From assembly GCA_964016885.1 (NCBI GenBank), contig OZ024741.1, forward strand, positions 284,642,001 through 284,706,000: 64,000 nt of DNA, read 5' to 3'. The DNA comes from Eledone cirrhosa. Its lineage: Eukaryota. The notes below the pieces were generated by a model. That model saw nothing but the letters and a program-made list of their open reading frames with translations, was not told the DNA's origin and did not search any database. Below, piece by piece: positions 1-59,040 of the stretch (position 1 is its first letter; each line of letters opens with the position of its first letter). The translations under genes and the position numbers were made by a program.

Positions 1-3000
1 TAATAGAGCCAAACAAGGCATTTAGTCTTGGCTGCTGGAACGTACGGACGCTGCTTGACAGGGATTTCTTGGAGCGTCCTGAACGAAGGACAGCTCTTGT
101 TGCAAAGGAGCTTCGACGTTACGATCTTGACATCGTGGCCTTATCTGAGACGAGGTTAGCTGGAGATGGTCATCTTACAGAATTTTGTGGAGAATATACA
201 TTCTTCTGGAAAGGAAGAGATGAAGGAACCAGAAGAGAGGCTAGGGTAGGATTTGCTGTTAAGACTGTACTTGTGAATAAATTAGAAGAATTCCCAGTAG
301 GGATTAGTGAACGTCTTATGTCCATGAGAATTCCGCTGGACAAAGGAAGATATGCGACCCTGGTGAGTGTGTATGCTCCAACTATGAATTCTGTCAATGA
401 AGAAAAAGTGTTTTAAGAAATATCCCTCAGGCAGACAAAGTCATCGTGCTTGGTGACTTTAATGCTAGAGTGGGTAGGGATTTTAACACATGGAATGTAA
501 TCGGAAGGCATGGGGTGGGAAAGTGTAACAACAATGGTATGCTCCTGCTGCAGATGTGTGAGGAGCTGGATCTGTGTGTTACCAACACCATGTTCCAACA
601 AAAGAACAAATTCAAGACCACATGGATGCATCCTGCATCTAAGGAATGGCATCTTTTGGACTACGTCCTAGTCAGGATGCGTGACAGACAGGATGTGCAG
701 TGTGTTCGTGTTCTTCGTGGAGCTGAGTGCTGGACGGACCACCGCCTGGTACGCGCAAAAGTGAAACTAATCAATAAACGTAAAATCCGGGCTCCTGGTG
801 TTGCCCTGCCCAAAAGATTGAATGCTGCTCGTCTTAAGGATAAAAATGTGAAGAGGACATTGGAAGAAGAGATGCAGGCTGCAGATCTTGGTGAGGATTG
901 GCCGACCCTTAAAAAGTCGGTTTATGATGTAGGCAGGCGTGTTCTGGGATTGATGCAGAGAAAACATCAGGACTGGTTTAATGAGAATAATGTACATATA
1001 GAAGACTTGTTGGCTGATAAGAGGCGTGCTCTGTCATGCTACTTGACGGCAAAACCACAGGAGAGGAATACGTTGCATGAGGAACTCAAGGATGTAAAAT
1101 CACGTGTTAGGCGGAGTCTTTCTCAGATGAAGGATCAGTGGTGGAGTGAGAAGGCTGGTGAGATACAAACTGCGTCAGATTCCAATAACACAAAGCTGTT
1201 GTACAATCTCTTGCGTGAGGTTTATGGACCGTCTTCTTCTCTGGTGACACCGCTTCGCAGCAAGGATGGCAAAGAACTTCTTCGTGACTCACAAGGAATT
1301 CTACGAAGGTGGCGAGAGCACTTTGATGATCTTTTGAATCAGCCGTCTGTCGTCAGTGAAGATTTCCTCAATCTCATTCCAGAAAGTCCTGTGAAAGTAG
1401 CTCTCGCAGAACCTCCGACGCTTGTGGAGGTTGCAGTAGCTATTTCGAAGCTGAACAGTGGAAGATCTCCAGGTATGGATGGCATACATGCTGAGCTCCT
1501 ACAATATGGTGGTGAGAGACTCCTGCAACATCTTCACTCTTTGTTTGGCAGGATATGGGCTAATGAATCCGTACCTGAGGACTGGAGAGATGCAGTAATG
1601 GTGGTCTTGTACACGGGAAAGGGTAACAGGAATGATTGTGGGAACTACAGAGGTATATCATTGCTTTCTGTCGTAGGGAAAGTTTTATGTAGGGTGCTTC
1701 TGGACCGTCTGCTGACACACATTGCAGATTGTGTTATTCCTGAAAGTCAATCTGGTTTTCGTGCTGGACGCGGAACTACTGATATGATCTTCTCAGCTAG
1801 ACAGCTCCAGAAGAAGTGCATGGAACAAGGCATGGAACTGTAGCAGGTCTTTGTCGATCTGACAAAAGCTTTCGATACTGTTAACAGAGATGCATTATGG
1901 AAGGTTGTCCAGAAACTTGGTTGCCCTGATAAGTTCCTTGCTTTAGTTAGGTCTTTCCATGACGACATGAAGGCTTGGGTTAATGTCGGAGGTAACATGT
2001 CGGAGCCTATCTCAGTAAAAGATGGAGTGAAACAGGGGGATATTCCAGCACCGACTCTGTTTGCCATATACTTTGCAATGGTTTTCTGTATTGCATTCAG
2101 GAATTGCGAGCATGGTGTTTACATCCAATATCGAACCTCAGGCAGCATATTTAACATCAGGCGCTTTGCTGCAAAGACAAAAGTATTTACATCAATCATA
2201 AGAGACCTCTTGTATGCAGATGATTGCGATCTTGTAGCGCACACAGAGAGTGATATGCAGCACATTTTGAATGCATTTTCTGACGCTTGCACTGCCCTAG
2301 GATTGACTGTCAGTCTCAAGAAAACCGTCGTCATGTACCAACCTGCCCCTGGTAAGCAGTACACTGAACCAAATATCTATGTGTATGGTAAAAGACTTGG
2401 AGTGGTTGATCAGTTTGTCTACCTGGGAAGCACTGTCAATCTATACGGCAACCTTGACAGTGAAATCTCACTTAGGATTAGGAAAGCAAGTGATGCTTTC
2501 GGAAAGCTAGAAAGGCGACTCTGGGGTCGGCGAGACATATGCAAGAGGACAAAGGTAAAGGTGTACAAGGCATGTGTGCTCTCTTGTCTTCTTTATGCCT
2601 GCGAGACCTGGGTCACATATCGACACCACCTTAAGCAATTGGAGCGTTTCCATCAGATGTGTCTCAGACAGATCCATGGCGTTCACTGGAGGGACCACAT
2701 CAGTGATGTCGAGATTTTGGAAAGCTCTATGTGTGAAAGTATAGAAGCTCTTGTGTTTAAGCAACGACTCCGTTGGAGTGGTCACCTTGCCAGGATGAAG
2801 GATTCTAGAATACCAAAACAACTCTTTTATGGAGAGTTGGTTAAAGGAAAACGACCGCCACATAAACCAGAAAAGAGGTATAAGGATTCCTTGAAAGCCT
2901 CTCTGAAAGACGCTAACATCTCTGCTGATACATGGGAAAATATTGCTGCTGATCGTAATAAATGGAGAATGAGGGAAAAGTTGCCTTTGAGGCATCTTGA

Positions 3001-3250
3001 ATCGCATACGAGAAAGTAAAGCGGGATGTGAGGAAGGGCATTGCTGTTGCACTTCCAGACGGCGAGGGTCCTCCTATGGTGCTGACATGCAGCATCTGTG
3101 CGAGACTCTGCCTAAGCAAAGCTGGACTCGAAAGTCATCTTCGCAGTCATAAAGTAAGACCAGTGCCTGACTACCAGGCTGCTGTTGGAGATGCTACTCA
3201 TCATGCTTGCCAAACATGTGGTAGAGAATGTAAATCAGCAGGAGGGCACT
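1..3250 (+). mobile_element. RTE-clade LINE (APE endonuclease + RT + C2H2 zinc fingers), near full length but disrupted
   Basis: Motifs WNVRTL, ALSETR, LGDFNARVG, LDYVL, TDHRLV (APE); PGMDGI, YRGISLL, QSGFR, DLTKAFD, GVKQG, LYADD, YLGS (RT); CxxC..H...H fingers at 3028-3250. Contains stops and frameshifts; 3' end cut by another insertion. Confidence 0.95.
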
Positions 3251-3344: not shown

Positions 3345-5693
3345 TATTATTAGTTCTTACTTCCATCAAACAAAATCACAACGGGATGCAAACCCTCTAA
3401 ATACCACTGTAGCAAGCAACCATAGCAACGGCAGTAACAATAGAAATAACACTAGTATAAGTAATAACACCAGGGTTGTCAACCCGAACACCCAAAATCC
3501 TATATCCACCACACAGACTTCCGCATTGCATTATAACCAGCGGACTAACGCACATGATAATTGTAACTGTAGAGCTAATAGAACCTGCCCTTTAGATAAA
3601 AAAATGCCTAACCAAGGATGTCATATACTCATGCACAGTCACGACTAATAACGCTTCAGAAACCTATGTAGGCTCCACTTCTAACTGCTTCAAAATCAGA
3701 TATAACTCGCACATCCACTCGTTCAAAAAGCACAGCCTAGCCAACTCCACCTCACTTTCTAGCTACATACACTATCTAAAATCTAAAAATAAACCATACA
3801 CACTCAAATGGGAAGTGATAGGCAGCGCGACCTCGTACAAACCACCTAATAAATTCTGTAACCTCTGTATACTAGAGACACACAATATTATCTTCTCCAA
3901 CCGTGACCTACTTAACAAAAAATCTGAGGTGTTTGCAACTTGCCAGCACCGCCTCAGACATTCCTTCCAAAACTTTAAGCCCTATATATAGCAATGTCGG
4001 ACTGGAACCTAACACCACATCTAGCATCAAACACCAGAGACACACCCTATACTACATACCCAACACTAGCTGATCCTTTATAACACAAACAACGACATCC
4101 CTCCGGAACCCTTCGCAGGGAAAATACCCATTTATACCTCTACGGCAGCTGTGACAACATCCACCCACTTGAACGGCACTACACCGCTCTAAGGGTAATT
4201 TGAGCATGAATTGATCGGTTGGATAGTGTTGGGCAGAGGAAACACCTTCCTTAGACAGATGTAAAATGATTTAATCGAGTAGCGCTGTTGACCAGTAGGA
4301 CCGGGCTGCTGAGCGCAGTGAGTGAATGCAATGCAACTGCCGTGCGGGTTGTACGTATATGGAGGATCTGACGGTCAGAGAGGGGTCGCGAGGACTGCGG
4401 ATTGACCTTTGGCCTGCCTGGGGACGATTATCTTTCGACATCCAATGTAGCAAGCGATGACCCAGATCTTACCAGAGATCATTGGGTCCTGAAGCAATCC
4501 TGCAGTCACCGCGCCTGGTCATATGAGCAGACTACAACCACAGAGATCATTAATTTAGAATCCTCGCTCATCATCTATAATTTCCATTTGTAGCACCTTA
4601 AGATGGGTTAATCCACCATAATAATATGATCACCTTCAGCATAACTTAGTTAAACTACTCTATAGTTAATACACTTTATACTTTAAAAGTCTCTCTTGGA
4701 AGGTGCACTTCACCATAGAATTTAGGGTCTATATTGGGACACATTTTAATGGCTAGATATAGAAACCCCAGAGTTACCTCCCCGCATGCATTAACTCCCC
4801 TTAGCCACACACACACTTCCGGTATTCAATGGCGTTTCTCGAAACGTAACAACCTCCTGTATCGAACTAAAGAACACCAGACTACGATCTCTAACTGGAT
4901 TGTCGTGGATTATGTGAAAGGCATATAATCGAAATATACACTCCCCTGACCATGAAAATGCCGAAGTACATGAAATACTTGACATCCCTGCGCTGTGTAT
5001 CTCCAATACTTATAACACTTTTAACACTTTTAATGCTTGCACTATCTTTAATGCTTATAATATTTCTCCACACACAAACTATATCAATCATATAAAGATT
5101 TTGCCACCAGATCTACCAACCTAACACTCTTATTTACCTACCTAAGTGCCTCTACCACACATATCTCTCTGCCACACTATATAAACAAGACGCACATGCG
5201 TGCCACACATATAACATTTGCACTATATAACCACTTATCTTCATGTTGTACTTTAACCTATATCTTTGATTTTTGATTGTACCTATTAATATAAATGTAA
5301 TCTCGAAGTGTGTACTGCCACTCTAAATTCTGTAATGAATGTTGACCCACAATGTTTGAATATGTATCAATGTTTGAATATGTATTTGGTATGTCTCTCG
5401 GCTGAAAAGGAGGTCATATAACTGTCCATGCATTAATAAATTGCTTCGAAGAATCCAAACCTCGGTTTGGAGGAAACAGCTGTAAGCACAATAATGTTTT
5501 GAGCAGTTCTTTGATTCTTATATTTCATATAACTGCTCTGTAAATCATCTGATGTTTTTACATTGAGCTACTTAACTTACTGGTAATAAGGTAGTAATAC
5601 ATTACTGCCTACCACTATTTAGGGTGTGTGTAAAATACTTACAACTGCTTAAGGTTTTGTATTTGCATAACCATAAATAGTATAACTAATACT
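3345..5693 (+). mobile_element. 5'-truncated Penelope-like element: GIY-YIG endonuclease remnant, long 3' region and terminal repeat with HHR
   Basis: CNC..CPL linker, then after a frameshift YVGSTSNCFKIRYNSHIHSF..STSLS..W..CNLCILE..LN..E..C.H (about 3560-3990). Ends in (TA)n at 5693. 5329-5693 matches the 507-nt array at 56.6-58.8 kb. Confidence 0.8.
5442..5488 (+). ncRNA. Hammerhead ribozyme (variant core) in PLE terminal repeat
   Basis: TGCT-TCGAAGA-aTCCAAACC(tc)GGTTTGGAg-GAAA-CAGCTG-TA-AGCA. Confidence 0.65.
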
Positions 5694-5713
5694 ATATATA
5701 TATATATATATAT

Positions 5714-15512: not shown

Positions 15513-15559
<47 letters not shown>

Positions 15560-15561
<2 letters not shown>

Positions 15562-16605
15562 GACGTGCGGAATAACAATTGCACCACCCCGCGTGCTGTG
15601 GGTTGTAATGGTGCTAACGACAGCTGCGGGAGCGTAGGTAACAACGTAGGCAGCAACATTGATAGCCTTACCGTGGGAAATAGATGGAAGCGCGACAGAA
15701 ATTGCAACTGCCGCGACAGAGGACGCTGCCCCCTTAGTGGATACTGCTTGACTGATAGGATTATATATAGATGCAATGTAAATAGCCACAATAGCGTTAA
15801 ACATTATATAGGGGCTACCTCCGGCCCGTTCAAAATTAGGTTTCGAACACATCTCCACTCTTTCACAAATAAAAAACTAAGACACTCCACTTCGCTCGCG
15901 GACTACATCACATCACTAAAGGACTTAAACATCAGCTTCTCCACGCACTGGGATATTGTCGGCAGGGCTGCACCGTACAACTTCAAGAGGAAGTGCGATC
16001 TTTGCCTCATGGAGTTCTACCACATCATAACTGCACCCCACAAGCTCATCAACATCAGAGATGAAACAGCGATAAGTTGTACACATCGTTTAAAAATATC
16101 CTTCTTCAGATGGGTTAAGGATGAGGAGTGAAACCGTGCACCGGATCTCCCTGCAACAAGTTTTAACACCCCGGCGGGCAGGCGCTGCAAAATAACACCC
16201 AGGAAAATAACCAGGCATACCAGACCCAGACTCAAACGACCCAGACAAACAGGTGCGGAAAAACAAACGTCTCAAAATAAACGTTGGTTACATGATCCTG
16301 TGCGTATCGACAATGGTAAGGTTGTAACCTCATCTTGAAACGGATACAAATTTGTCCGGGAAAGACTGCTTTAACACCGGCCAGAGTTACTTCCCTTGAC
16401 ATGCTGCAAAATCAAAACAAGCTATTTTTGCGAGCAATGAACCTTGACGTGAATTTAACCCCAAAAATTCTTTCCGAGCAATGTAAGGAACACTTTTGGT
16501 TATTTATGCCTTGAGAAGCCCAACTGGGCGAAACGTACGTAGGTGATGTTTTAAATAATCATGTTTTAACGGTTTATTCTCCGATTTCTTACTTTTCCAC
16601 GTATA
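15560..16605 (+). mobile_element. 5'-truncated Penelope-like element: open GIY-YIG domain (15565-16131) plus 3' terminal repeat
   Basis: CNCRDRGRCPL..CL..IIY..YIGATSGPFKIRFRTH..STSL..W..CDLC..E..LIN..CTH; HHR at 16507; (TA)n at both ends. Confidence 0.9.
16507..16545 (+). ncRNA. Minimal hammerhead ribozyme, U3-A8 variant
   Basis: TGCC-TTGAGAA-GCCC(aact)GGGC-GAAA-CGTACG-TA-GGTG. Confidence 0.8.
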
Positions 16606-16842: not shown

Positions 16843-18407
16843 TACATACATACATACATACATACATACATACATACATACATACATACATACATACATA
16901 CATACATACTTACATGCATACATACATACATACATACATGATGGCTGCCCCCTCGTTATCGAGTATGGCCATTGCACGAGGAGAAAGAAAAAAAAAAAAA
17001 TAATAATAATAAATAAATAAATAAAAAAAAAAATAAATATATATATATATATATATATACATATACATACATATATATACACACACACGCACGCACATAC
17101 TCACACACATATACACACACACATACATTAATAACAATAATAATAATAATAATAACAACAATAATAATAACGACAACAACAATAATAATATACATATACA
17201 TATATATCTACACACACAGACACACACGATAGCAACTAACAGCGCTGCGATCGAATGTGGCTTTTTAGCCCAGCCAATGATCTAAAATGTCTTGCACAGA
17301 GTCGGCATCCAAAACATTCACTGGGAATAGTCGGCTGTGGTTGGAGTTCATGTACTTTTGCATGTCGCTTGAGCCCTCCTGCTGATTTACATTCTCTACC
17401 ACATGTTTGGCAAGCATGATGAGTAGCATCTATAACAGCAGCCTGGTAGTCAACCACTGGTCTTACTTTATGACTGCGAAGATGACTTTCGAGTCCAGCT
17501 TTGCTTAGGCAGAGTCTCGCACATACGCTGCATGTCAGCACCATAGGAGGACCCTCGCCGTCTGGAAGTGCAACAGCAATGCCCTTCCTCACATCCCGCT
17601 TTACTTTCTCGTATGCGATTCAAGATGCCTCAAAAGCAACTTTCCCTCATATACAGTCTTTCTCCATTTATTACGATCAGCAGCAACATTCTCCCATGTA
17701 TAAGCAGAGATGTTAGCGTCTTTCAGAGAGGCTTTCAAGGAATCCTTATACCTCTTTTTTGGTTTATGTGGCGGTCGTTTTCCTTTAACCAACTCTCCAT
17801 AAAAGAGTTGTTTTGGTATTCTAGAATCCTTCATCCTGGCAAGGTGACCACTCCAACGGAGTCGTTGCTTAAGCACAAAAGCTTCTATACTGTCACACAT
17901 AGAGCTTTCCAAAATCTCGACATCACTGATGTGGTCCCTCCAGTGAACGCCATGGATCCGTCTGAGACACATCTGATGGAAACGCTCCAATTGCTTAAGG
18001 TGGTGTCGATATGTGACCCAGGTCTCGCAGGCATAAAGAAGACAAGAGAGCACACATGCCCTGTACACCTTTACTTTTGTCCTCCTGCATATGTCTCGCC
18101 GACCCCAGAGTCGCCTTTCTAGCTTTCCGAAAGCATCACTTGCTTTCCTAATCCTAAGTGAGATTTCACTGTCAAGGTTGTTGTATCGATTGACAGTGCT
18201 TCCCAGGTAGACAAACTGATCAACCACACCAAGTCGTTTGCCATACACATAGATGTTTGGTTCAGTGTACTGCTTACCAGGGGCAGGTTGGTACATGACG
18301 GCGGTTTTCTTGAGACTGACAGTCAGACCTAGGGCAGTGCAAGCGTCTGAAAATGCATTCAAAATGTACTACATATCACTCTCTGTGTGCGCTACAAGAT
18401 CGCAATC
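16843..18407 (-). mobile_element. 5'-truncated RTE LINE of the same family as 1-3250, with three C2H2 fingers; 3' hairpin tail at 16937-16980 separated by microsatellites; (ATGT)n tail
   Basis: ORFs 17601-18362 and 17236-17592 are nearly identical to 1967-3250; tail GGCCATACTCGATAACGAGGGGGCAGCCATC. Confidence 0.93.
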
Positions 18408-18523
18408 ATACATACATACATACATACATACATACATACATACATACATACATACATACATACATACATACATACATACATACATACATACATACATACA
18501 TACATACATACATACATACATAC

Positions 18524-21049: not shown

Positions 21050-24000
21050 TATATTTCATAATTTGCCACAAGGGCGCACAAGAAAAGGAGACAATACAAA
21101 GACACATGCCGGGGATTTTACATACAGTCGTGTAAAAATATTGAAACAAACAATTATAACAATCGAAATCCCCAATAGCGGAGAGGCGCCAGAAATGGGT
21201 TTAATACCCCGTCGATAGAAAAACCCTCAACTTCATGAGCGTGTTGTGCAAGTGCCCCCCTTCTTCCTTTTGCTCTCTTCTTTAACCTACAGGCTTATAA
21301 ACAGAGAAGGCCCAATCACTCGGGCCATTTTCGCTTCATTCATCCACCTTTCAGTAAATTTACTGGGGTGCAATGCCTCTCTCTCAACTCTGATTCTCCT
21401 TCTAACGTGATACTTAAAGAAGGGAATCAATTGTTGTTCGGAGAGAAAGACATCTGTTCTCAGTCCTCTCAATCTCGTCCACCATATAACCTCTTTCACC
21501 ATAACCACTGTACAGAGGAAAACTGCCTCTCTTTCGTTTTTGAAAGAGGCTGGCGGTTTGATCCTTACTATGGACTCGGCAGTCAACTGGATGTGTCCCA
21601 TACACAACAGCAGTTGTTATACATAGTTCCACAGGTCGTTTACGCCCGGGCAGTGTAAGACGGTTTCAATGTCCTGCTTGCATCTTGGACACGTCCTCTT
21701 GGAAGGATCCCTGCCGGGGCGCCTGTGCCTGTAGATCTTATCTCGAACGGGTAGAGCTCCTCTGTAGAGCTCCTCGGTAGCACTGCCAGGCCAGGGATCT
21801 CTGGAAGTTGTCCATAGGTCTCGGGCGGAAAGTCCTACCAAACAGACTGGTGAGCTCATCGTCTTCGACGCCTAGAGTCTCCCCGAGCAGGTCGTTGCAC
21901 TTGTAAAGTACTAAACCTCTACAGAATGTCGAAGTGGAGTCTCCACTGATTGCTGTGTCCGCTTGACAGGACTGTGAGTGCCTGGGCGCATTCAGTGTGC
22001 CAGGCGCCCATCTTCTTCGGTCTTCGCTTCACCCAGGACTGCAGCTCCGTCAGCAAGACAAGTTGTGGGAAGGCCTGTCTCACAAACGGTGCCCACACCG
22101 GTTGGTAGGTGAGGAATACCTGGAGATGCCGTAGATACGAATACTTGGAGATGCCATGGCATGCCCAGCCCTCCGTTGGAAGGGTGTTGACAGCAGACGG
22201 ATCTCCTCACTAGTGGAGCCTGCTTCTTCCACAGGAACTGGAAGAGCATGCGTTCCATCTTGGTAAGGTATTCATGGGGACAAGGCACGACAGTCAAGCG
22301 GTAGTAGATGACGGACGCTATGAAAGTGATCTCCACCTCCGCTCGACCTTTCAAGGACAGTTTGCACTCTGCCCATTTCTGGGTGAGCGCAAATACCTTG
22401 GTCATGACCTCGTTCCAGTTTTTTCCACCTGGACGTCTGGACTAAACCAGACCCCGAGCAATTTCACCGGTCCTTCCGTCCAGCGTCGGACGACGCTGTC
22501 GGACGGCATCGGTTTGCCTCTCCACATTCCGAGTTGCAAACCGACAGGTTTGTTCGGGTTCAGCTTTGCTCTTGTGAACTTTTCGTATTCCTGTAGCAGG
22601 TTGCCGATTACCTCGATTTCCGAGGTTTTCGACACCATTACCGTCACGTCGTCGGCATAAGCCGACGCCGCTTTTCGCAGTCCCGGTTCTAAAGGGGTGC
22701 CCTGCAACAGCTCCAACTTCCGCAGTAGTGGCTCTAGAGTCAATGCGTACAGAATGGAGGAGAGAGGGCATCCCTGTCGAAGGGAACGCGTGATTGCGAA
22801 CGGCTCCGATAGGTAACCGTTCACCTTGACCCTCGAGCAGATGCTGGTGTGCATCGCCTTGATCCAGCCCCTGGAAACGGGACCGAAACCGACCGCCTTG
22901 AGAACCGCTTCCAAGTATCGATGGTCGACCTTATCGAATGCCTTAGACTCATCTAAATTGATCAGAGCCGCACCTAAGCCGGGTTTACACCCCACACTCT
23001 CTATGATGTATCGCATGAGGTGGAGGTTGTCGTGCATGGACCTGGTCGGGATTGCACACGTTTGCGCTTTCCCTACAAGGTTTTCGACGACAAGCGCCAG
23101 CATCGTTTCTAGCACCTTGGCCAAAATCTTTAAATCTGTGTTGAGCAGATATATGGGCCTGAAATTGTTTATTTCGTCCCCCTTGTTTTCGTCTTTTCTG
23201 ATCTGCGTTACTACGCCCTTGCCTGCAGAACTGGGAATTGTCCCGTTCTGCTGCCAATTGCAGTAGACGGCATGCCTATGTAAAACTCATAGGGTAGACC
23301 ATCTAGACCGGGTGATTTGCGTTTCCCGCAGCGGCCCAGAGCGTCCCGTATCTCAGTGGCTGTGATCGGTCTTTCGCAAAACTCGGCGTCCATGCTCGAG
23401 AGACGCGGCAGGCCGTCGAGGTATGAACCAAAGTCCATTGCCCCGTTCGTTGCACCGTTGTTCTGCTCAAACAGTCGCGCAAAGTGCCGCCGAAAAGCCG
23501 CGCACATCTTCTTGGCGTCAAGTAGCATGCGTCCGTTTTGGTCTTTGAAAGACCGAATCGTGGACTTGTTGCCATTTTTCGCTTCTGCCAGTCGGGCCCA
23601 GCTAACAGCTTTTGCTCCCTCATTTCCTAGAGCACGTGATTTACTTCTGACCACGCAGCCTTAGTGTTTCGCGTCGAAGAACTGGTCCAGTGCCGTTCTC
23701 GATGCTAGCACTCTAGCTGCGTTGCCACTCCTAAGCGCTTCTTCTACCTTGGCTACTAGTTCTGTTTCTGATTTGTTTTTCTCTAAAGCTAATTCTCTGC
23801 TAAACCCTATCGATTATACTCTAATTGCTCTCTTGAGAGAGTACCACCATCTATTGTTGACCATGGCTCCCGTAAACTCTTGCTTAACTAATCTACTTAT
23901 CCGTTCACTGTAGGCTTTTCCGGCTGGCAACGACACGTTCAGCTTCCAGTATCCGGGTCCTTGTCTATGTATTCTATAACGGTTGACTAAGCAGACGACT

Positions 24001-25450
24001 AGTTTGTGCTCTGAATAGGCAACCATGTGCATTTGCGGACAGCTTAACATCTTCTTGTCCTTTTCTCTAATGAAAAACCTATCTAGATACGATCTAGATG
24101 TCCCTCTGTGATTTGCCCACGTCCACTGTGGGAAATCTAGTCGATATCTATCGGCCAGTTGGAATTGGCCGATTAGATTTTTGAGGCTGTTGCACCCCGC
24201 TCTGATTGGACATGCTTCCACATAGTCCCATCGTGCATCTAAGATACCATTCCAGTCCCCCACTAAAAGCAAGGAGCAAGACGTTCCCAGAAAAGACTCT
24301 AGACGCTTAAAGAAGTCTGGCCGCGATTGTGATTGCCCGGTCGGACATAAACAGCCACCAGTCTGAAGGCTCCACCTCCAATACTGTTCACGTCTAGGAC
24401 TACCAGTCTACCCTCCGGGTCCAAGTGTACTTGCTGTACTTCGAGATCCAGGTTCTTCCGAAACATGACAGTCACTCCCCCTCCACCTCCCGGCTGACAG
24501 AGAGATGCGTAGATCTCAAAGTCATTGAAGATCGGGGTAAGTTGCTGCCTGTTGTGGATTCTGGACTCGGTGATGGCTATTACATCTATATTGTGAGATC
24601 TAAGGTCGTTTAAAAGTTGGCCCTGTTTCCAGGGCATCCCTAGGCCACGCACATTCACGCTTCCAACTCGTAAGTCAGCCATGTTGGTGGAGAAGTGTTG
24701 GAGAAAAGGACGAAAAGGTGCACTTACCTTTTCGTTTCCTGGAGATCGGGTTGTTTAATCTCCATTTCAGTTCTGGTGGGGGTGTTGAGTGGGATGGGGA
24801 AACATTTCAACAGGACACGGTTTATTGGTTTTTGGCAGGGGTTGCTAACGTTCTGTGAAAATTGTTCTTTTAATTTCTGATAGGTTTCTATCGAAACCCT
24901 TATTAGTTTTAGGTGTGGTTGAGAGTCTGCTTTTACAAAAGTTTTCCACTCAGTTTCTACTTTGGGGTCTTGGGAGATGACCTCCATTAGGTTTTTGTTG
25001 TTTGTGTTAATGTATGTGTATTGTTGTGTTTTTGTTGTTGTGTTGTTTTGGTTTGTCGTTCATTTTGTAGTTTTCTTTTTATGTTTGGGGTGGTGTTGGT
25101 GTTTGTTTTGCTGGTAGGGGGAGGGGGGGGGGGTGATTGTCGTGGCGTTTTTGCTGTTGTTTGTGTTGGTGGTTGTGTGTTCGTATTGGTGATTGTTGTT
25201 TTTGTGGCTTTGTGGTGTCTCTTTTTTTGTTTTTTTTTATTTACGAGGCTCTCCTTCATCTTCACTTGGGGATGGAGAAGTAGCCTCGCCTGGTGATGAA
25301 TCGTCATCAGGGGCGTGTGGGAGGGGTATGTTGTGTGGTGATTGTGTGTTTGTGTGTATGATTGTGGTAGTGTTGGATGGACTGGGATGGGGTGGGACTG
25401 TGTTTTTCAGGGGAATTGTTTGTGTTTTTTTGTTTTTGTGTGTTGTTGTT
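21050..25450 (-). mobile_element. L1/Tx1-clade LINE, decayed (ORF1 remnant, APE, RT, C-terminal zinc knuckle)
   Basis: SVNVRGL, ITES, VGDWN, YLDR, SEHK, GPGYWKLN; SPGLDGL, LDESKAFDKVDH, RQGCPLS, AYADD; GGLG; CPRC..ETVLH. Flanked by (GA)n and (AGAT)n. Confidence 0.93.
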
Positions 25451-29228: not shown

Positions 29229-32200
29229 GGGAGAAAAAAACGATTATTAGGAAGAAAAATCTTTTTTTTTCCTTATTTTTTTCTCTTTTTTTTCTGGGTT
29301 CGAAAATGTTTAAAACAAAATATTTTACTTTGTGTAGAAGGGTTAAGGTATTAGTTAATTTATTTATTAATTAACAATAGCATTGATTTATTTATTTATT
29401 AATTTATTTATTATCAATTACCGGTTTCACCATTTTATGCATTATCAAATCATGAGAGAAAAAAAGGGGAATTTGTATTGGTTAAGGTGATATTGAACAT
29501 GTTATTGAAATGGGAAAGAAAGAATAATATTATTTACAAACAAGGTTTTTGAGTAAAAAAAAGGGTAATGTGGAACATGATAAGGTGATGTGAAAGAAAG
29601 AATAATATTTACAAGCATTGTTTTTTGAGGATAATCAGTTCAAAAAATGTTATTATGGCACAATCGCTTAAAGAAGTTGATCCTTGAATGTCCGTCTGGG
29701 ATTGGATGTGTTTTCCCTTTTTAAAGAATTAATATGCAGGGGGAGGTAATTCAGGGTGGTCAGGTAGGAGAAAGAGAGGAGAGAGGGTAATTCATTTATA
29801 TAAGAAAAAAGATTAGGTAGGGTGTTAGGGAGGTAACTCTTTAGAGAACGTAGGGCTTTAGGACTATGGTTCATTGTTCGTTCCAGTTTTAGTTTAGTCC
29901 GAAGTTTAGTCCATTAAGTAGAGGTTGGAATTTGTTAACGAAGTACGTTTCCTTATTAGTACGATGGATGAAAGAAGCGTTGTCTATGAATTTGTAAATG
30001 GGAAAAATTCTAAAGTTTGGTAGTTGGTTAGGTGCACAATTCGCAATATTTTCACTAAAAGCAATCTTTTTGTATTCCTGTATTTTGATTTGTGATCTAT
30101 GGACGGTCATACGTTGTCGGAGGCTGTTTTTTGTCTGTCCTATGTAGCGTTCTCGACAACCTGAGCTGGTCAAAACATAGATTAGGTTTTCAGATGCACA
30201 TGTAAATTTGTATTTAACTGTGAACTGTTGTCCTTGTTTAAAGTGGAATGTTGAACCTTCTATTAGATTTATGCATATACCATGTATTCTTTTTACAGTG
30301 GGATTCATTGTGAGGGTTGGTTGTATTTTGGCTTGTGTGAGGATGTTTTTCATGAATTTAGGTTGTCTTTTGCTCTTTATGATGTGTGTTTGGAGGATTT
30401 TATTCATTCTTGGGTCTCTTTTTAGTAAAGGAATGTTCTGGAGGATGGTGTCGAATGCCTCATTGTTGAGGGGGTTGTGTGTGGAGCTGTATGGTAGAGT
30501 TTTCTGTTTCGGTTCAATCCTGGGTTCGGGGTGTCTGAGTTCCTGGATGTTGAGTTTTAGGGCACGCTGGAAACCATTGTTGGTTAGGGATGGTGGGTAG
30601 TTTCTGCTGATGAGTGGGTTCTTTAATTCTTCTAGTCATGTGTAGCATGTGTATTTATCTGAAACTATTGTGCAGATCCTTTTGGCTAGGTTAAATGGAA
30701 TTGCCATTTTGGTATGGCGAGAGTGGCACGAGTTAAATGGAAGATAATGTTTGGAGTCTGTGGGTATATGTCTGTTTCTATTTTGTTATTTGTTTTCTCG
30801 ATGAGGATGTCAAGGAAAGGGAGTTGTTCATGGCTGTATTCCATTGTAAATTGTACGTTTGTGTTGAGTCCATTTAGAAGTGTTTTAAATTCAATCAGTC
30901 TTTCTATACGTTCATGCCAGAGGATGAAGCAGTCGTCCAGATATCTCTTCCAGTTTTTTTCTATGTGTAGGTGGAAGTGGTTTCTGTATTTGTCTAGAAC
31001 TTTTCGTTAGAGAGTAGTTTCCAAATATCCCATGACAAGGTTGGCGTATGAGGGGGCTACTTTCGTGCCCATGGCAGTCCCAGATTTCTGTCTGTAGTAT
31101 TTGGCATCGAAATCGAAGAAGTTATTTTCCAAGATGAATTTGAGGCCCTCGATCACAAATTCTTTAGGGATGCGCTGTGGAAGTTCATTAGAGAAGTTTT
31201 CAAGCCAGAATTGTATTGCCTCTTTACCTAGGTTGTGTGGGATATTGGAATTCAGATTGATGACATCAAAGGTTACTAGTAGGGTATGTTCATTATTGAG
31301 TGTTGTTGGGAGGTGGTTGAGCATGTCAAGGTCGGCCCTTATGAAGCTTTTTATGTGTTTTAGGAAAGGTTTAAGCAGAATATTTAGGAAGTTTCTTAGG
31401 CGGTGGGTTTCACATGTGGTACCTGCTATTATGGGTCTTAATTTGAGGTCATCAGGAGGGGGGATATTGATGTAAATGCCTGTGGATTCCTTGCAGGCCC
31501 TGCCTATTACTTCGCTTTTGTGTATCTTTGGGATACCGTAGAAAAGGCTGGTTCTGCTTTTGAAATTGGTGATGTAGTTGTATTCCTTGTCGGTAAGGCC
31601 TTCTTTGTAAAGGGTCGTTAAGGATTTTAGGTTTCTCATTATTTTCTGTTGTGTGTAGTATTGGGCCTTTTCGTATTATGTTTGGTTTTCTAGAGTTGAG
31701 AGTACTAGAGTTGTGTAGTAATCTGTCCTCATAAGGACTACTGCACTCCCTTTATCTGCCTCTTTGACTGTTAGGGTTTTGTCGTTCTTTAGACTGTTAA
31801 GTCCATTCCATTCTTTTTTGCTTAGGTTGGGTTTTTGTTTATCTCTGTGTAGGCGGTGGTATGGGTAATTAGTAATGTGTTCTCAGAATTGATTGAGGAA
31901 TTTGTTCTTGTCTTTTGGTAGGGTGTAGTTGCTTCTATTTCTAGCTATTGAGTCATCCTCATTGTATTTGTCCTATAGTTGCTCGCTGAGTCTTAGTTTT
32001 CTACAGAATTCTGCAATATCTTCCTTCATTTCGGGGTAGTTTGGCCGTTGAGGAGTTGGTGTACATTTCAGACCTTTGGAGAGTATGTTGATTTAGTCTG
32101 TTGTTAATTCTTTAGAGGTTTAATTAACGATTTTTATTACCTTTTGTGTCTCCTGTGTCTTGTGTTATCTTGTTACCCTGTGTCTGTGTGCTGTGTCTAA

Positions 32201-33755: not shown

Positions 33756-34515
33756 TTAATACATTAACAGAGAAAGCATTAAACGATACTCCGACCGACT
33801 CCCATCTCACTTAACAAACATTAGGATATACCTGAGTATAATCCCAATTATATGTTTCTAGTGCTAACTATATTGTATTTTGTGGATAGCCGGTTGTATT
33901 ATTTTATATGAGACATAATTAAATAAATATCTCTTTCCATACGATCGTTTCGTTATAAGTTTTCTACAAATTGGGAAAATAATGTCCAGGTTATGTAGAA
34001 GCTTGCATATAGTCCATAGGTATACATACAAGTGGATACTTATAATTCATCAGTGGATGCCCACATATTTATTTATTTATTTAGTTATTCCTGCTTCCTA
34101 ACTACTGCTCGTATCTGTGTATACATTTTTGAGTGCATATATATCTGTGTATATGTATGTGTATGTATTTATGTTCCTGTAGACGCAAATACGCTTATGT
34201 GAGAAAGTGTACGTCTACGTACTTTTTAGTATATGCGCGTAGTTGAGTGTGTGTATGTTTACGTTCTGGATATTTATATTTTTATATATATATTTTTTAT
34301 TTTTTTCCCCTATTTCCTTTTCGCCCGTTTTTTTCAGCCTTACTTTCATATTTCCTAAATTTTGTTTTCAAATCCATATTTAATAAATACACCATGTTTT
34401 TTTAATTCATTCTGACGACTGAAGACAGACACAACATCTGTCTTCAAGAAACCACTGGTAAATGAAATAATAATCTTATGTTGTTTATTACATAACATAA
34501 TTAATAAATAAATAA

Positions 34516-56159: not shown

Positions 56160-56589
56160 TTCTGTGTGTGTGTGTGGGGGTGTGTGTGGTATGTGTTTGT
56201 GTGGTGTGTGTGTGTGTGTGTGTGTGTGTGTCTGTGTGTACAAACGATTGAAAAGCGAGCGCAATCTACGTAGAAGTTGAATATATTTGTATTAACAGTT
56301 TGACGAGAGATTTCGTTAGACTTAAATCTGTCTAACTCTTCTGACGCGTCCTAAATAAGACGGGATTTGATACTAACTAGCACATTTCCATTCACAATTC
56401 GCAGAGAAATTCCACGGTAACCGTTGTAGTCAACACAATTTTGACTGAGAGTCCTTGAATCAACTCTGCCCTTCTCTTAAATTTGCTGCCGCTGTGCCTT
56501 GATTACATATCAATATGAAAACATAGTTATAGTCTGTGCTGTGGCCCTCGCAGAGCATTAGGCTTCAATATATATATATATATATATAT

Positions 56590-58757
56590 GAAATATGAAA
56601 TATAAGAATCAAAGAACTGTTCAAAACATTATTGTGCTTACAGCTGTTTCCTCCAAACCGAGGTTTGGATTCTTCGGAGCAATTTATTAATGCATGGACA
56701 GTTATATGACCTCCTTTTCAGCCGAGAGACATACCAAATACATATTCAAACATTGATACATATTCAAACATTGTGGGTCAACATTCATTACAGAAATGAA
56801 TTTACACTGTTGATCAGCAATTTCTCATATGTATTCCTGGATGGTATTGGTATGTTCTTGGTTGACATGGGGAGTTGGTCTTTGATTAGCATATTGGCAA
56901 TATTATATGTCAGCTCAACGATATGGAGCAGTTAATAGTATTAGTTATACTATTTATGGTTATGTAAACACAAAACCTTAAGCAGTTGTAAGTATTTTAC
57001 ACACACCCTAAATAGTGGTAGGCAGTAATGTATTACTACCTTATTACCAGTAAGTTAAGTAGCTCAATGTAAAAACATCAGATGATTTACAGAGCAGTTA
57101 TATGAAATATAAGAATCAAAGAACTGTTCAAAACATTATTGTGCTTACAGCTGTTTCCTCCAAACCGAGGTTTGGATTCTTCGGAGCAATTTATTAATGC
57201 ATGGACAGTTATATGACCTCCTTTTCAGCCGAGAGACATACCAAATACATATTCAAACATTGATACATATTCAAACATTGTGGGTCAACATTCATTACAG
57301 AAATGAATTTACACTGTTGATCAGCAATTTCTCATATGTATTCCTGGATGGTATTGGTATGTTCTTGGTTGACATGGGGAGTTGGTCTTTGATTAGCATA
57401 TTGGCAATATTATATGTCAGCTCAACGATATGGAGCAGTTAATAGTATTAGTTATACTATTTATGGTTATGTAAACACAAAACCTTAAGCAGTTGTAAGT
57501 ATTTTACACACACCCTAAATAGTGGTAGGCAGTAATGTATTACTACCTTATTACCAGTAAGTTAAGTAGCTCAATGTAAAAACATCAGATGATTTACAGA
57601 GCAGTTATATGAAATATAAGAATCAAAGAACTGTTCAAAACATTATTGTGCTTACAGCTGTTTCCTCCAAACCGAGGTTTGGATTCTTCGGAGCAATTTA
57701 TTAATGCATGGACAGTTATATGACCTCCTTTTCAGCCGAGAGACATACCAAATACATATTCAAACATTGATACATATTCAAACATTGTGGGTCAACATTC
57801 ATTACAGAAATGAATTTACACTGTTGATCAGCAATTTCTCATATGTATTCCTGGATGGTATTGGTATGTTCTTGGTTGACATTTCTGTAATGAATGTTGA
57901 CCCACAATGTTTGAATATGTATCAATGTTTGAATATGTATTTGGTATGTCTCTCGGCTGAAAAGGAGGTCATATAACTGTCCATGCATTAATAAATTGCT
58001 CCGAAGAATCCAAACCTCGGTTTGGAGGAAACAGCTGTAAGCACAATAATGTTTTGAACAGTTCTTTGATTCTTATATTTCATATAACTGCTCTGTAAAT
58101 CATCTGATGTTTTTACATTGAGCTACTTAACTTACTGGTAATAAGGTAGTAATACATTACTGCCTACCACTATTTAGGGTGTGTGTAAAATACTTACAAC
58201 TGCTTAAGGTTTTGTGTTTACATAACCATAAATAGTATAACTAATACTATTAACTGCTCCATATCGTTGAGCTGACATATAATATTGCCAATATGCTAAT
58301 CAAAGACCAACTCCCCATGTCAACCAAGAACATACCAATACCATCCAGGAATACATATGAGAAATTGCTGATCAACAGTGTAAATTCATTTCTGTAATGA
58401 ATGTTGACCCACAATGTTTGAATATGTATCAATGTTTGAATATGTATTTGGTATGTCTCTCGGCTGAAAAGGAGGTCATATAACTGTCCATGCATTAATA
58501 AATTGCTCCGAAGAATCCAAACCTCGGTTTGGAGGAAACAGCTGTAAGCACAATAATGTTTTGAACAGTTCTTTGATTCTTATATTTCATATAACTGCTC
58601 TGTAAATCATCTGATGTTTTTACATTGAACTACTTAACTTACTGGTAATAAGGTAGTAATACATTACTGCCTACCACTATTTAGGGTGTGTGTAAAATAC
58701 TTACAACTGCTTAAGGTTTTGTGTTTACATAACCATAAATAGTATAACTAATACTAT
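56590..58757. mobile_element. Divergent tandem array of a 507-nt PLE-derived, HHR-bearing monomer (about 2.5 copies minus, about 1.7 copies plus) inside (TA)n
   Basis: Period 507 (56690/57197/57704); inversion junction at 57881-57882; HHRs at 56635-56681, 57142-57188, 57649-57695 (-) and 57997-58043, 58504-58550 (+). Confidence 0.92.
58293..58397 (+). pseudogene. Truncated N-terminus of a PLE ORF within the 507-nt monomer (34 aa)
   Basis: MLIKDQLPMSTKNIPIPSRNTYEKLLINSVNSFL*; resembles the S.KNIP.P...Y...LI...F start of GIY-YIG PLE proteins (recalled motif, not searched). Confidence 0.6.
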
Positions 58758-59040
58758 ATATATATATATATTTATATATCTGTGTGGGTGTACGTATGAA
58801 GTAAGTAAGTTAGCGAGCATAAGGGACAAATAGGCGCACATTTTCCCAGGTTGATTGGTATAATATGAAGCATTTAATTAGTTGGAGTTGTCACACACAT
58901 TGCATGCATGGTCCCGTAACACCTGAGGGAATCGAAGGAATGCCATATTGACTCACGTTTTTAGGCATTTTAAATTTGGCTAAGCCCATCCCTCTCCAGG
59001 TCTGCTGAATACAGCAGCTTTCTTCCAGAGAAGGATAGAA

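Follow-up and report, generated by a model that had tools for sequence, protein, structure and literature searches.

The window analysed here is a 64,000-nt stretch of the Eledone cirrhosa genome assembly. In it we confirmed, as assembled, an array of a 507-nt unit (period 507) organized in two back-to-back arms. The left arm (56593-57882, minus strand) spans 1,290 nt or 2.54 units and the right arm (57880-58757, plus strand) spans 878 nt or 1.73 units, in agreement with the roughly 2.5 leftward and 1.7 rightward units of an initial annotation made from the sequence alone. The two arms are unequal in length and out of register. They meet at a head-to-head junction with a 3-nt CAT overlap (57880-57882), which is the ORF start codon on the minus strand; this overlap had been read as a 2-nt AT microhomology at 57881-57882. 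The five unit copies are letter-identical save for a single G>A at 58629, a base private to the last unit. Short (TA)n runs border the array on both sides and are followed by unique, non-mirrored sequence. The left target remnant (56568-56592) includes a 7-nt TTTCATA duplication that precedes the (TA)n, and the right remnant occupies 58758-58780.

The unit derives from a Penelope-like element (PLE), hereafter the parent, on which positions are given as F numbers of a natural 4,199-nt reference copy (locus L035). An internal deletion of 3,692 nt has brought F1-141 next to F3833-4199, with a 2-nt TT overlap at the joint. The first part (58251-58391, plus strand) comprises a 66-nt leader and codons 1-26 of the PLE ORF, after which two stops occur; it translates as MSTKNIPIPSRNTYEKLLINSVNSFL before stopping, which is the start of the 811-aa ORF in full-length copies elsewhere. 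The second part, the 368-nt 3′ (pLTR) segment F3833-4199 (58390-58757, plus strand), matches the 3′ end of a PLE copy in the same window (5328-5695). The whole unit has a GC content of 33.5% and a longest sense frame of 47 codons.

The deletion joint F141|F3833 is found at 58390-58391 on the plus strand and at 57808-09, 57301-02 and 56794-95 on the minus strand. These four complete joints are letter-identical, and all four matches in the 3.0-Gb assembly (1 mismatch allowed) lie at the array locus. Likewise, among 100 of the 136 tandem junctions listed, a same-strand pair closer than one full unit is found only here. The confinement of the joint to one locus speaks against the spreading replicon that had been suggested: rather than replicating independently, the 507-nt unit is an internally deleted form of a young Hydra-type PLE. 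The family data below support the suggested dependence on a PLE and the youth of the array, more strongly than the sequence alone could. We regard the array as real and young, a non-autonomous derivative of an active PLE that is present at a single locus.

The PLE copy in the window (3349-5695, plus strand; F1861-4199, 97.5%) belongs to the same family and is 5′-truncated. We rejected it as the donor of the array: F1-141 is missing from it, and it differs at 4 sites in the shared part, one of them in the ribozyme core. We also rejected back-splicing as the source of the deletion, GT/AG being absent from either breakpoint on both strands.

The parent is a 4,199-nt Hydra-type PLE with one ORF of 811 aa. 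Within this ORF, YRDD at 346 and YVG at 704 mark what we take to be a reverse transcriptase (RT) followed by a C-terminal GIY-YIG-type endonuclease. Compared with the published description of the Hydra clade, the ORF also contains the RWK-like RWR (30), DKT (115), CNCRANRTC (670), CNLC (768) and CQH (796), and a Pfam search of it found no family. The parent thus has Hydra-clade motifs, and together with the (TA)n targeting and the hammerhead motif in the pLTR these would make it a Hydra-clade PLE. A TA-rich 10-mer is located next to 149 of the 160 outer ends of the family. Across the genome assembly there are 1,223 exact matches to the motif of one end (A, see below) and 755 to the other end (B) plus TATA, and open frames of at least 800 aa are present at about 99 of 150 scored parent ORF starts (hand count). 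Judging from its sequences, the parent family is young.

Elsewhere in the window, an endonuclease-end fragment of a different PLE family (15517-16131, plus strand) has a similar CxCx5C motif and adjoins (TA)n. Broken RT and GIY-YIG-like frames at 29889-31675 (minus strand) are presumably another Penelope-like element, and we assume that the broken endonuclease and RT frames at 1-3247, 17373-18409 and 21992-24754 are copies of LINE-type retrotransposons.

A motif scan with a relaxed descriptor (4-bp stem I, 7-8-bp stem II, palindromic CAGCUG stem III, GUA) predicts five minimal type-I hammerheads in the 4.3 units of the array, in line with the one motif per near-identical unit described initially. 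Two are on the plus strand (57995-58045, cut after 58039; 58502-58552, cut after 58546) and three on the minus strand (57647-57697, 57140-57190 and 56633-56683). Their core, CCGAAGA, corresponds to U4C and may fail strict descriptors; Rfam reported no hammerhead in the array, either at gathering or at E<=10. A canonical CUGA core as the family norm was rejected, with only 8 matches genome-wide. Two more hammerhead-like motifs in the window, at 34406 and 44101 (plus strand), have canonical CUGANGA cores.

In the predicted monomer fold of the motif, stem II is formed and the active fold is absent (z -1.6), and stem III of the dimer has a predicted pairing probability of 0.46. The older subfamily has CAGUUG at this position, where G-U would keep the predicted dimer pairing. 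Shared variant sites amount to 1 of 51 in the ribozyme motif compared to 155 of 1,330 in the upstream UTR, with the ORF leader equally still. The alignments indicate that the hammerhead-like motif is conserved, including in the older subfamily. In published work, U4C considerably lowers hammerhead activity in vitro yet permits viroid infectivity (PMC3088659). The U4C core counts against the circle explanation that we favour below, as does the use of uncleaved RNA by the one purified PLE (PMC11167929). The deletion joint does not coincide with the predicted cut, being located 156 nt upstream of it. In one public run (X2), summed contig depth at 58501-58700 is very uneven and peaks over the ribozyme region, a pattern from which we draw no conclusion.

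The two arms of the array end at sites that are shared by the whole family. The left arm starts at the ORF ATG (F67) and stops at the fixed end B (F4034/4035), and the right arm starts at the deletion joint and stops at the fixed end A (F4199), 164 nt from B on the parent. The right end is also the end of the PLE copy in the window, as had been noted, the alignment stopping at 5695 rather than 5693. The initial annotation had the outer ends at two different points of the unit, which stands; these points are not arbitrary, as they are the two fixed 3′ ends of the family.

Both outer ends were visible at 65 loci, and all 65 have one A and one B. These come from 183 loci picked regardless of pairing, of which 118 show one end or none in the stretch examined; the count leaves out 22 loci selected for pairing, and it includes one or more loci that resemble segmental duplicates. 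In the first 268.6 Mb of contig C1, a divergent A motif is found within 10 kb of 32 of 64 B ends and a convergent one at 0, for a chance expectation of 0.5. Family junction overlaps peak at 1-3 nt (48 of 107). The ends and the junction of the array are thus typical of the family, since A+B pairing and 1-3 nt overlaps are the family norm. Accordingly, different outer ends follow a family rule and are not the mark of rolling on this monomer that they had been taken for. The claims of two-ended priming in a (TA)n tract and of microhomology joining are supported: the array ends are the same two sites as at the 65 loci, and its CAT overlap falls in the modal class of the family. The 7-nt duplication at the left end also has counterparts, TTTCATA being repeated one to three times before (TA)n at family B ends, a slippage-like priming signature.

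We compared copies within and between loci. The two arms of a locus differ at 74 of 59,399 nt (0.12%, with sufficient overlap at 46 of 52 loci) compared to 0.89% between loci, and upstream and downstream tandem repeats differ at 39 of 20,318 nt (0.19%) compared to 0.97% between loci. Minor alleles shared with other loci are concordant between upstream and downstream repeats in 157 of 160 cases, and in 22 of 22 downstream of the predicted cut. Separate inheritance through linear donors would be expected to make upstream and downstream repeats drift apart, and such drift is absent. Among second-pass arms, i.e. arms crossing the tandem junction, 81 of 90 pass the predicted cut, which does not act as a wall (arms with less than 28 nt upstream were left out). 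Because these arms run beyond it, a cut linear monomer is excluded as the template; a circle, an end-to-end jump and a long uncut multimer remain. The A+B ends, the low arm difference and the 157 of 160 shared alleles make it likely that one template is read from both target ends and past unit length, in the array and in the parent family. The within-locus identity, the allele concordance and the arms passing the cut likewise favour the earlier proposal of copying past one unit length on a circular or multimeric template.

At family loci the stretch copied by both arms reaches 4,035 nt, and in the array the overlap is complete. A full-size analogue (G000:C23:27743000-27760500; L292, L293) has 1.36 units leftward to B and 2.39 rightward to A; its copies are 1-4 differences apart, and its arm stops are 28 nt apart on the unit. 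Other data suit linear templates and count against a pure circle. In biased samples, more arms seem to be lost per 100 nt during the second pass than during the first, and the arms of L010, L046, L061, L067, L093, L094, L100 and L104 stop at almost one parent position, those of L100 and L104 having exceeded one unit. Such coincident stops could reflect a shared RNA 5′ end or a trailing enzyme that catches a stalled one. Gene conversion between nearby repeats could be an added source of within-locus identity. Fold-back self-priming (Arkhipova 2013) is disfavoured as the source of the second arm, because either arm may be the longer one and neither arm of L076 is contained in the other. F3897-3910 on the parent, at the inner end of a predicted long-range helix (see below), is a hot spot of cDNA stops on both passes.

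Next, we considered where the deletion came from. Wherever both arms cover the site of another internal jump, just one of them shows it (L089, L101, L142). The array deletion is present in both arms and at every turn, and was therefore already in the template. Folding of a natural parent stretch predicts a long, imperfect helix between the pLTR side and the ORF start (F3820-3910 with F60-155), and both breakpoints lie opposite one another across an internal loop, just inside this helix. The breakpoint neighbourhoods are predicted to form a 95-nt duplex of -51 kcal/mol. None of 377 and none of 381 alternative partners folds as well, and among 600 random pairs one does. The rank falls to 3.4% when 60-nt windows are used, and near F2660 there is an alternative partner for the ORF-start segment that is almost as good (-49.8). 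In an alignment of 14 sequences including the older subfamily, the outer and inner helix are predicted to be kept and the middle refolds locally; compensatory changes in the helix were absent from the 14 aligned copies (covariation term -0.1). Helix-guided jumping as a general rule was rejected, as 8 other jump rows rank at 15-91%. As the origin of the joint, the predicted helix is suggestive only. The 507-mer itself has a fold z of -3.5, which is inherited parent structure and no evidence of selection on the mini unit.

On balance, we think that the array probably represents one recent insertion of a deletion derivative of the active PLE, copied by the parent protein from a single 507-nt circular RNA at both ends of a cut (TA)n. 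The circle would come from the predicted folded end domain of the parent RNA, with its boundaries facing each other inside the long-range helix. The endonuclease would cut both strands of (TA)n, after which priming would begin from one target end at site A and from the other at site B, two positions of a single RNA that are separated by 164 nt. Two cDNAs would run for 1.7 and 2.5 turns, be joined through CAT and then be filled in. We lean towards a circle formed directly at the RNA level, rather than from a deleted donor missing in the assembly. We judge the mechanism put forward in the initial annotation to be largely right, and to apply to the whole parent family. A more general version, which we offer tentatively and regard as open to serious doubt, is that in each transposition of the family a single circular RNA is copied, starting simultaneously at two fixed sites. 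The locus would then be a retrozyme at birth, a folded cis-acting domain cut out and closed at the RNA level along the helix without a genomic donor, and rolled in from both ends.

Explanations without a circle are less convincing. A deleted copy may have existed earlier elsewhere, with unequal exchange between its 368-nt direct repeats expanding it as DNA; a linear multimer transcribed from it, left uncleaved, would then have been inserted two-endedly. In favour of this scenario, the only purified PLE used uncleaved RNA as its main substrate, which was sufficient in vitro (PMC11167929), Li et al. 2026 (10.64898/2026.07.22.740005) propose a route by local tandem amplification, and a donor on another haplotype may be missing from one assembly. 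We nevertheless consider it unlikely: the assembly contains no donor, three extra events are required, and the resetting of the parent's own repeats at each transposition is left unexplained. Alternatively, the template was a linear RNA of ~509 nt running from F3833 to F141, with the RT jumping at every pass from the 5′ to the 3′ terminus of this RNA, a pseudo-circle. R2 enzymes perform such end-to-end template jumping, the right arm stops at the deletion joint, the sequence a little upstream contains TATAAA (F3795) and an initiator-like motif (F3823), and the predicted helix would hold both RNA ends together. End jumps are usually variable, however, and the four complete joints are identical to the letter. 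Moreover, TATAAA reads TATGAA in 10 of 14 aligned copies, and cDNA stops near F3825 reach only about twice the background, which leaves this reading rather improbable. A transcription start at F3825 acting as a hard wall was rejected, its bin being passed by 51 of 55 second-pass arms.

The near-perfect inverted and tandem identity could also point to an assembly or chimeric-read artefact, of the array or of its unit number, and no bridging read or contig across the joint was found among the pieces listed. In the public runs, the highest share of sequence words is 0.52, and none is listed as RNA. Of four runs compared with the locus one gave no reads, and the loose ends at the joint are parent-type (pieces listed), which speaks neither for nor against the array. 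Such an artefact is very unlikely, because the ends lie at family-fixed sites and the arms differ in length and in register; the unique unmirrored flanks, the family slippage duplication at the left end and the private base in the last unit further argue against it. Finally, an ordinary two-armed insertion may have been rearranged later in place by deletion, unequal exchange and arm-to-arm gene conversion. Nearby inverted and direct repeats are able to recombine. Nonetheless one joint would have to arise and spread to both orientations with one mutation in 2.2 kb, and we regard this course of events as extremely improbable.

The circle model, the link between retrozymes and PLEs, and inverted copies are already published. 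Cervera & de la Pena suggested in 2014, and again in 2020 (PMC7229834), that circular templates yield copies longer than one unit, a proposal reviewed in PMC6765202. Li et al. 2026 (bioRxiv 10.64898/2026.07.22.740005) tie retrozymes to PLE pLTRs by homology, in a main text from which the word 'deletion' is absent, and copying from circles by a PLE RT has been proposed for animal non-LTR retrozymes (PMC7229834; 10.64898/2026.07.22.740005). Inverted 5′-truncated copies with an optional tail are described as standard PLE features, including by Arkhipova 2013. We found no report of strict two-site end pairing or allele-level template resetting in PLEs, nor of a retrozyme-like array with breakpoints mapped in its parent, in a literature made up mostly of non-subscription main texts; the supplements of Craig 2021 and Li 2026 may bear on this.

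How PLEs come to insert in tandem and in inverted orientation, and from what source animal retrozymes arise, are matters still to be explained. With a circular template proposed since 2014, the array and its young parent family give countable genomic evidence on each of the two. They also provide a test system: the protein of 811 aa is intact, two priming sites are mapped, and the 507-nt unit is a natural candidate for a minimal substrate. If it was copied from a small RNA circle, the array would show the birth of ribozyme-bearing repeat parasites. Taken alone it is a single event, and nothing indicates that it serves the host or has spread.

The two-armed layout recalls L1 twin priming, in which two target ends prime cDNA and a microhomology join creates an inversion. 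L1 arms copy separate parts of a linear RNA, whereas the arms of the array copy the same stretch and exceed the unit. Among PLEs, Poseidon PAc resembles what we propose for the parent in its AT-rich target, cutting and extension of both strands, two internal initiation sites and a predicted dimer; Frangieh et al. 2024 (PMC11167929) report that in vitro its protein cleaves the two strands, extends each of them and initiates at internal positions. MRC1 and other non-autonomous Chlamys PLEs (PMC8557442) are likewise non-autonomous derivatives with multicopy head-to-tail insertions, but as described they are established green-algal families, mostly without canonical hammerheads. The Hydra-clade C-terminal-endonuclease PLEs of Craig et al. 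2021 (PMC8557442) resemble the parent in RWR, DKT, the CxCx5C linker, CxxC, and CxH in the endonuclease, in the hammerhead motif and (TA)n targeting, and in a partial tandem and an inverted 5′-truncated copy. The parent unit is 4.2 kb long, compared to generally <3 kb in the described members, and its 'tail' offset is 164 nt with strictly one end of each kind per insertion, compared to 30-40 nt (PMC8557442).

With the published animal non-LTR retrozymes the array has in common non-coding AT-rich tandem units, one type-I hammerhead-like motif in each, and kinship to a PLE pLTR. It has at least two consecutive tandem units with a type-I motif (relaxed descriptor), and its non-coding, low-GC unit of a few hundred nt lies, at 507 nt, within the reported 51-972. 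It differs in that its breakpoints can be read exactly in a co-resident intact parent, in keeping the first 26 ORF codons and a divergent two-arm layout, and in its minimal PLE-type U4C motif, theirs being described as canonical. Retrozymes form dispersed multi-locus families, while the joint of the array is found at one locus. By this comparison the array, although it stands outside such a multi-locus membership, would work like a retrozyme insertion.
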